From: a virus
Lineage: Duplodnaviria; Heunggongvirae; Uroviricota; Caudoviricetes
Reading direction: 5' to 3' (one strand)
IMG/VR virus record: IMGVR_UViG_3300022719_000283
Location: 366,590-398,589 of that record
Length of the DNA: 32,000 nt
Part shown: one piece after another, positions 17,155-17,279 of the stretch
Position numbering within the stretch: the first letter of the stretch is position 1
Layout: the number at the start of each line of letters is the position of its first letter
The notes under the pieces: generated by a model
What the model was told of the DNA's origin: nothing
Databases searched by the model: none
Seen by the model: the letters and a program-made list of their open reading frames with translations, nothing else
Translations under genes and position numbers: made by a program

Positions 17155-17279
17155 ATCCGCGTCTTAACGTTGGACCAGGGGTACGTGTGAAGGAGGGAAG
17201 CTCAAGGCTTGCACTTGAGCGGGAGCGCGTCTCCGCTTCCCATGGTGTACCCCCACGGATTCTAACCGCGATTTCGGAC
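17155..17279 (-). ncRNA. Permuted tRNA-like module P3 (long structured linker closing the acceptor stem)
   Basis: Minus-strand order is as follows. It opens with GUCCG (17279-17275), AAAU, and the T arm CGCGG-UUAGAAU-CCGUG. Then come GGGGUAC-A-CCA (17253-17243) and a 58-nt hairpin-rich linker. The second half is GUACCCC (17184-17178), UG, GUC-CAACGUUAA-GAC, G, and CGGAU (17159-17155). The acceptor is 7/7 and CGGAU/GUCCG forms a stem at the anticodon-stem position. The T-loop has A at position 56 and the D-loop lacks GG. Confidence 0.45.

Follow-up and report, generated by a model that had tools for sequence, protein, structure and literature searches.

The window analysed here, a 32,000-nt stretch of a Caudoviricetes genome (IMG/VR record IMGVR_UViG_3300022719_000283), is rich in tRNA genes, as identified by ARAGORN, and also carries genes for a CCA-adding enzyme (1356-2732) and for EF-Tu. 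The locus of interest lies on the minus strand. It begins with a gene for a 246-aa protein of the DUF7873 family (PF25283; 17881-18621; Pfam E = 6e-101). Directly downstream of this gene is a non-coding RNA of ~450 nt with two permuted tRNA-shaped heads, of which P2 is the first (17332-17494) and P3 the second (17155-17279). In the window, a 127-aa ORF without a family match lies between the gene and the RNA (17495-17878); it is absent from the relatives L003 and L007. P3 is the module that we studied in detail. It is a real and strongly conserved circularly permuted tRNA look-alike, and the RNA that carries it resembles the bacterial Y RNAs known as YrlA.

The minus strand reads, from 17279 to 17155, exactly as the original prediction had it, in both sequence and order. 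The module opens with GUCCG (17275-17279), one strand of a stem at the position of the anticodon stem (tRNA 39-43), which with the following A gives GUCCGA. Then come the variable region AAAU (17271-17274), whose last U, if YrlA and tRNA are a guide, would be U48 and form the Levitt pair with A15, the T arm CGCGG-UUAGAAU-CCGUG with an A at position 56 (17254-17270), and the 3' strand of the acceptor stem, GGGGUAC (17247-17253). The linker begins with an encoded ACCA, i.e., N73 and CCA (17243-17246), and its remaining 58 nt (17185-17242) lead to the 5' strand of the acceptor stem, GUACCCC (17178-17184). The module ends with U8-G9 and the D arm GUC-CAACGUUAA-GAC (17161-17177), which includes A14, A15, G18, U19, and A21, and with G26 and the second strand of the anticodon-position stem, CGGAU (tRNA 27-31; 17155-17160). 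All seven positions of the acceptor strands are paired, the T stem has five pairs including one G-U, and the CGGAU/GUCCG stem has five pairs including one U-G and is separated by 1 nt from the preceding D stem and by 4 nt from the following T stem.

We searched both strands of the window with a strict parser, whose criteria were a T arm bearing a UUNRA loop, a 7/7 complement of the acceptor strand no more than 110 nt away, a D stem, and an anticodon-position stem with 5/5 pairs. P3 was the only full permuted cloverleaf that it found, and 200 shuffled windows gave none. Neither ARAGORN nor Rfam made any call at 17155-17279, including one for a linear tRNA (RF00005). It had been suggested to scan the rotated module for a tRNA. 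When a synthetic 7-nt loop is supplied, ARAGORN calls a 74-nt tRNA cloverleaf; the direct join that had been proposed leaves no loop and gives no call. The nucleotides making tertiary contacts in tRNAs are present in P3 (U8, A14, A15:U48, G18, U54, and A58), with U:A at 19:56. The retention of these contacts (U8-A14, A15-U48, G18, 19:56, and U54-A58) suggests that the head most likely folds into an L shape. The D loop, CAAC-G-U-UAA, had been described as lacking G18-G19 and carrying UU; there is indeed a U at position 19, but G18 is kept.

The conservation of the structure was assessed in two alignments, one made with MAFFT from 49 unique homologues and the other model-based, from 81 distinct matches of a covariance model. 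In the former, 96.0% of the pair cells were paired, against 62.4% after shuffling, with a covariation score of 0.842 against 0.199. The latter gave very similar values (97.4% against 64.0%, and 0.852 against 0.206). Both showed double changes in 21 of the 22 pairs, and pairing fell to at most 46% in either alignment when the 3' partner was slid by 1-3 columns. The permuted order is thus conserved and its four stems all co-vary. The seven acceptor pairs, whose complementarity had been noted from the window only, co-vary without exception (99.3% of cells paired, as in the T arm), and the D-stem pairs co-vary too. The assignment of CGGAU/GUCCG to the position of the anticodon stem is upheld, since its five pairs changed on both sides and 95.6% of their cells are paired. 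For example, GGGGUAC/GUACCCC in the acceptor stem of the window corresponds to GGCCCUC/GAGGGCC in a relative, CGCGG/CCGUG in the T stem to CGUGG/CCAUG, and GUC/GAC in the D stem to GUA/UAC. Far from being the weakest of three modules, as first ranked, P3 is the best supported one.

[quoted passage not shown] U19:A56 is carried by the window, by its syntenic relatives, and by genomes of Nannocystaceae type. As these 13 sequences form one clade, the swap was probably a single evolutionary event. Clean as it is, it adds to the rare cases in which the tRNA elbow has undergone compensatory change in nature.

P3 has no anticodon loop. Its "anticodon stem" runs on into an internal loop and three more stems, such that the head is placed on a long interrupted stem built from the flanking sequences. 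RNAalifold, applied to ten whole RNAs, independently recovered the cloverleaf, the three-way junction of the linker, the three outer stems, and a 3' hairpin (17081-17047). The internal loop is asymmetric and conserved, with 8 nt on the 5' side (ACACCCUU, 17280-17287) and 12 nt on the 3' side (GGUCUUUCUAAG, 17143-17154), the latter carrying a conserved ..UCUAAG / ..CAGAnCUGA motif in place of the anticodon loop. Beyond it, the outer helix pairs ACCGGCU (17294-17288) with AGUCGGU (17142-17136), and the two distal stems pair CUCGACA (17309-17303) with UGUCGUG (17126-17120) and ACUGA (17316-17312) with UCAGU (17115-17111), with compensatory changes. The geometry of the outer helix is the same in all lineages, even if the sequences differ (UCUAGCU/AGCUAGA, GUCGGCGU/GCGCCGAC, and GGACGUGGA/UCCGCGUCC). 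The length of the longest helix, 7.1 bp against 5.7 bp after shuffling, is a weak statistic, and the case for the outer helix is made instead by its constant position and by the covariation in RNAalifold.

The linker and the 3' end are also structured. The nested hairpins proposed for the linker are real and conserved. They form a three-way junction in which a GGGAA/UUCCC stem (17241-17237/17199-17195) encloses two hairpins, GGAG..CUCC and CUCAAG..CUUGAG (at 17234-17222 and 17219-17201). Compensatory changes maintain this structure in the window and in seven homologous loci (L003, L005, L007, L009, L010, L015, and L016), and L012 and Nannocystis have loops of 7-11 nt in its place. At the end of the unit, the hairpin GAGCCCCCCAAG-UGAGGUUACAU-CUUGGGGGGUUC is followed by a U-rich tract (17040-17081). 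A good intrinsic terminator had been predicted at 17040-17078. The hairpin spans in fact 17081-17047, its U tract is broken, and a simple terminator scan made no call, but its pairing is maintained through compensatory changes in relatives (e.g., CCGAG/CUCGG and GCAGG/CCUGC). It is likely the end of the transcript, and the alignment is consistent with the earlier idea that P2 and P3 are part of one unit ending there. An alternative fold, in which UACACCC (17289-17283) would pair with GGGGUA, is not the conserved one. When the acceptor 3' strand changes to GGCCCUC (L006 and L007) or GGGCGUC (L009), the downstream 5' strand follows (GAGGGCC and GACGCCC, respectively); the upstream segment, ACA(A/C)C(C/U)CC, shows no co-variation with these changes.

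The covariance model scores P2 at 29 bits, with its T arm at 17443-17427, its acceptor strands at 17426-17420 and 17409-17403, and its D arm at 17400-17384. The domain is closed by a helix between GGAG (17494-17491) and CUCC (17335-17332), complemented by imperfect pairing between AAGCUC hexamer repeats. In the minimum free energy fold of the P2 region of the window, these repeats pair with each other with 4 bp and two mismatches per hexamer. They seem by inspection to close the domain likewise in Actinomycetota, and the RNAalifold consensus recovered only the GGAG:CUCC helix. We considered whether the repeats could encode a KLKLKL... peptide and rejected it, because they vary between lineages by 1-nt indels, lack a conserved start or stop, and pair with each other. 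Elsewhere in the window there is a third module, P1c (9180-9249), located between two tRNA genes and matching the Rfam YrlA model with 37 bits; another candidate, "P1" at 10121-10098, is just a hairpin.

The acceptor end suggests how the RNA could be processed. The acceptor stem has always 7 bp among P3-like modules, and is accompanied by a G at N+1 (49/52), a U at N-1 (33/52), and a C at N74 (45/52). NCCA follows its 3' strand in 19 of the 23 unique Myxococcota and phage P3-like modules, in those with a loop of 7 nt as well as in those with 66 nt. Overall, 38 of 83 matches have it, where chance would give 1/64. Judging by the sequences, these traits are determinants of an RNase P substrate. 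There is a precedent in the YrlA of Mycobacterium smegmatis, which has a 7-bp acceptor stem: in vivo, RNase P cleaves it and CCA is added (PMC4201824). The CCA-adding enzyme gene of the window is in line with such processing. From the acceptor and NCCA pattern and by analogy with this RNA, RNase P probably opens P3 at G17184, the predicted +1 nucleotide, in the lineage of the window, with trimming exposing ACCA. Most Actinomycetota homologues have acceptor loops of 6-8 nt without CCA, and so a free CCA end cannot be a universal requirement.

The association between the RNA and the DUF7873 gene extends far beyond this element. The protein has 4233 homologues at E < 1e-10, and an identical copy is encoded in a contig of 618,736 bp. 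Syntenic contigs of 142-203 kb (L003, L006, and L007) have homologous P2 and P3 directly after the gene, and the same ~450-nt non-coding region follows it in metagenomic contigs with unrelated, ordinary bacterial neighbours. A scan with one genome per species revealed the gene in at least 549 bacterial species. A covariance model, for which 49 unique P3-like modules served as the seed, was run on the best 80 GTDB loci having the gene. These loci are from Myxococcota (Nannocystis, Paraliomyxa, and Kofleriaceae), Actinomycetota (Streptomyces, Actinomadura, Streptosporangium, Actinoplanes, and others), Planctomycetota, Chloroflexota, and Armatimonadota. In 77 of these 80 loci, from at least five phyla, the gene is followed by a P3-like domain, on the gene's strand except in L045; many of the 77 matches were absent from the seed alignment. 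A weaker P2-like domain was usually also found, ~150 nt upstream of the P3-like one.

Phages carry the same module. The DUF7873 gene is present in 75 phage records, and in the three phages that we inspected, Arthrobacter phage Mimi, Gordonia phage Phendrix, and the Klebsiella jumbo phage FBKp24, it lies within tRNA arrays and is followed by an unannotated gap holding both modules. The region 14000-22500 of the window had no megablast match in phage records, exact and degenerate patterns of P3 and the 3' hairpin had none in IMG/VR, and a DUF7873-based locus search in IMG/VR gave just one weak, non-syntenic match. The element probably acquired the module from a Nannocystaceae-like host.

The protein itself offers few clues. 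Searches of PDB sequences, NCBIfam, PHROGs, and PADLOC gave no relative of known function or fold, and Foldseek searches of PDB and BFVD gave nothing at E <= 0.001 (the best values were 4e-3 to 6e-3), with TM-scores that stayed under 0.2 for PDB structures and for the best-ranked BFVD matches. The only higher TM-score was with an uncharacterized phage protein (0.44/0.57, E = 0.07). Cas7/RAMP proteins were at the top of the Foldseek ranks, and we discarded this similarity as too weak (TM < 0.2). We therefore infer that DUF7873 binds the RNA from the linkage between their genes. Searches of the literature on DUF7873, phage permuted tRNAs, tandem tRNA-like RNAs, and YrlA since 2018 returned nothing about a DUF7873-linked RNA.

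The closest known RNAs are the bacterial Y RNAs of the YrlA family (Rfam RF02553; Chen et al. 2014, PMC4201824; Wang et al. 2018, bioRxiv 10.1101/312249, PDB 6CU1). The elements follow each other as reported for the YrlA crystal structure (stem strand, variable region, T arm, acceptor stem-loop, UA/UG, D arm, and stem strand), the anticodon loop is absent, and the ends pair into a long stem. YrlA RNAs also retain the tertiary contacts of tRNAs, including the A15:U48 Levitt pair, often occur as two tandem RNAs, are found in bacteria and phages, and include the above-mentioned variant with a 7-bp acceptor stem, which is cut by RNase P and bears CCA. In contrast, the RNA described here goes with DUF7873 and not with rsr, and its T- and D-stem sequences, which are nearly invariant in YrlA, vary freely. 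It further differs by having both heads on one ~450-nt unit with hexamer-repeat stems and, in the lineage of the window, by the encoded NCCA, the 58-nt three-way-junction insert in the acceptor loop, and U19:A56. The RNA is thus of a known kind, a circularly permuted tRNA mimic akin to Y RNAs, but its form is new, widespread, and apparently undescribed.

This likeness raises the possibility that the RNA is an ordinary YrlA/Y RNA binding a Ro60 (Rsr) protein encoded elsewhere or by the host, to tether or gate it as in Deinococcus and Salmonella, with DUF7873 being a mere neighbour or accessory. Beyond the shared architecture, RF02553 matches both modules of relatives over the full length of the model, but these matches (25-36 bits) score at about half of the gathering threshold (69) or less, and the P3 region of the window has no match even at E <= 10. 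The motif proposed to bind Rsr, GNCGAAN0-1G, does occur at the matching place of the 5' strand in several Actinomycetota homologues (GACGAACG in L072 and L084, and GGCGAAG in L071), but is absent from P3 and from the Myxococcota copies. P3 does carry GUCCGA, i.e., six of the seven positions of GGUCCGA, the motif contacted by vertebrate Ro60. The gene contexts speak against such a partnership: published YrlA RNAs are at most 4 kb from rsr and on the same strand, but no TROVE/Ro60 gene was found within 6-10 kb in seven contexts (the window, L003, L005, L007, L009, L010, and L012), and the invariant partner is DUF7873, while the other neighbours differ between genomes. Moreover, the Mycobacterium phages, for which carriage of Ro60 was reported, are missing among the 75 phage records with DUF7873. 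On balance, we regard a Ro60-binding Y RNA as unlikely. The RNA might alternatively be a permuted tmRNA in two pieces, as in alpha-proteobacteria and cyanobacteria, where the charged CCA domain would enter stalled ribosomes, DUF7873 would resemble SmpB, and the CA-rich hexamer repeats, free of structure, would be the message. Several traits fit this idea. A protein gene followed by a tRNA-like RNA recalls smpB-ssrA, where the RNA gene adjoins that of its partner; the T arm is followed by the 3' strand of the acceptor stem, CCA, an intervening piece, and the 5' strand, as in permuted tmRNA genes, with their permuted tRNA-like domain, excised intervening segment, and encoded CCA; P2 weakly matches the corresponding part of the cyano_tmRNA model (10.4 bits); the repeats upstream of P2 vary chiefly at third bases (AAG CUC, AGA UUC, AAA UUU); and the window encodes EF-Tu. 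Yet, ARAGORN found no tmRNA and the matches to the Rfam tmRNA models were negligible. Furthermore, tmRNAs lack both the full D arm and the anticodon-position stem that are present in P3. The module has no pseudoknots and no G3:U70 pair: its pair 3:70 is A:U, and homologues have GC (49), CG (19), UA (5), GU (4), or AU (3), with no conserved G:U. There is also no tag reading frame or stop codon conserved across the repeats, whose indels have lengths that are no multiple of three and which pair with each other as described above, and the acceptor loops of most homologues are closed and have no CCA. A tmRNA-like rescue function is thus very improbable.

Two further explanations are effectively excluded. 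P3 could be a genuine tRNA gene in circularly permuted form, like those of the red alga Cyanidioschyzon merolae and the archaeon Thermofilum pendens, and its transcript would then be circularized and cut again into a decoding tRNA. Like these genes, it has the 3' half upstream of the 5' half, a linker spanning the acceptor ends, matching acceptor strands, and an encoded CCA; it passes ARAGORN when rotated with a supplied loop, and lies in a window rich in tRNA genes. However, joining its halves yields no anticodon loop, the stem at this position extends into the conserved 8/12-nt internal loop and three long conserved stems, and there is no bulge-helix-bulge motif. The homologues are in bacteria and phages, most with a closed acceptor loop of 6-8 nt lacking CCA. 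Bacteria are not known to have the splicing endonuclease. We therefore give this explanation hardly any credence. The other explanation, that P3 is a chance resemblance or the decayed, functionless remnant of a tRNA rearrangement, such as an integration-site duplication, deserves mention because the many tRNA genes of the window can produce such matches: junctions of adjacent genes mimic the permuted order, as at 265-381, which the covariance model scores at 24.7 bits in spite of mismatched acceptor strands. It is refuted by the absence of such modules in the shuffled windows, by conservation in several phyla, where every stem shows compensatory changes, and by the constant position of the module relative to DUF7873.

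Our preferred reading, to which we assign a probability of about 60%, is that P3 mimics tRNA as a head of a ribonucleoprotein associated with DUF7873, with opening by RNase P being probable in the lineage of the window. The DUF7873 protein and the RNA carrying P2 and P3 would assemble into one particle. Each head consists of a T arm, an acceptor stem of 7 bp that a loop or a linker closes, a D arm, and a 5-bp anticodon-position stem, which would combine into an L shape, and the two heads may act as tRNA mimics toward the machinery that handles tRNAs. In the Myxococcota and phage lineage of the window, RNase P would cut 5' of G17184, and trimming of the 3' side would end at ACCA (17246-17243). 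The product would be an RNA with a free CCA end, whose two pieces the acceptor and outer stems would hold together. The presence of the module within the tRNA arrays of sequenced phages points to a role in the upkeep or quality control of tRNAs and translation.

A broader interpretation can be offered, if only tentatively, because we consider it possible rather than probable. DUF7873 and its tandem tRNA-mimic RNA could be an unrecognized and widespread ribonucleoprotein system, distinct from both Ro60-Y RNA and SmpB-tmRNA, in which RNase P opens a head that ends in CCA and the machinery of translation or tRNA repair charges or otherwise engages it. Phages might use it to protect or retune the tRNA pool, and the place of the module in their tRNA arrays suggests a link to the conflict between phages and hosts over tRNAs. 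If our preferred reading holds, a structured RNA of ~450 nt, with two tRNA mimics and an obligate protein partner, has so far gone unannotated in bacteria such as Streptomyces, Actinomadura, Nannocystis, Planctomycetota, and Chloroflexota, and in phages that include, among the three examined here, well-studied SEA-PHAGES isolates. [quoted passage not shown]

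The two tracts of hexamer repeats (AAGCUC/AAGCUG/AGACUC) on either side of the P2 head, at 17488-17455 and 17355-17320 on the minus strand, occupy the same regions in all relatives, and most of their variation sits at every third base. One tract pairs with the other, each hexamer contributing 4 bp and 2 mismatches, and this pairing closes the P2 domain; it is seen in the MFE fold calculated for the P2 region of the window and, by inspection, in the Actinomycetota sequences. The 6-nt periodicity of these repeats could be the mark of repeated protein-binding sites.

The rule linking DUF7873 to the RNA has exceptions among bacterial loci. 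At L045 (3180-3448, minus strand) both modules lie downstream of the DUF7873 gene on the strand opposite to it; L070 (Herpetosiphon aurantiacus) and L086 yielded no module within 1.5 kb. In Klebsiella phage FBKp24 (locus L097), the record annotates a 'tRNA-OTHER / Sup-TTA' at 5018-5097. Because our P3-like covariance model places a P3-like tRNA mimic at 5041-5177, the mimic may have been misread as a suppressor tRNA.

The window contains a further permuted tRNA-like module (9143-9295, core 9249-9180, minus strand), flanked by tRNA-Pro and tRNA-Leu, which is probably the P1 of the original prediction. Its T arm, GCAGG-UUCGAGC-CCUGC, is accompanied by an acceptor part, CUCCCCG-A-CAAUGA-CGGGGAG, followed by UA and then GCUC-AGUUGGAUA-GAGC, and its flanks are complementary to each other (AAGAGCGAGA/UCUCGCUCUU). 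It scores 37 bits with Rfam YrlA and 29.6 bits with the P3-like model, and is kept in the syntenic relatives L003 (about 20591) and L006/L007 (about 20168), with co-varying acceptor strands.

What looks like a D-armless tRNA-like element lies at 22225-22150 (minus strand), where the PTH2-like ORF begins. After its T arm, GCGGG-UUCGAAA-CCCGU, comes AGGGCCU-G-CCA, whose AGGGCCU has an upstream partner, GGGCCUU, with one long hairpin in between. A similar T arm plus NNNNNNN-GCCA occurs at the equivalent place in L003 (7058) and L006/L007 (7906). ARAGORN also calls a tRNA at 21450-21524 (minus strand) with an undetermined 2-base 'anticodon' (ca); it is a good tRNA by its Rfam score (51 bits) and may have an odd anticodon loop.

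Genes for a CCA-adding enzyme (1356-2732, plus strand), EF-Tu (5920-7293, minus strand) and the PTH2-like peptidyl-tRNA hydrolase (21832-22260, minus strand) are all set among the window's 13 tRNA genes. The stretch as a whole resembles a piece of a very large, tRNA-rich, phage-like element (a 618-kb contig).
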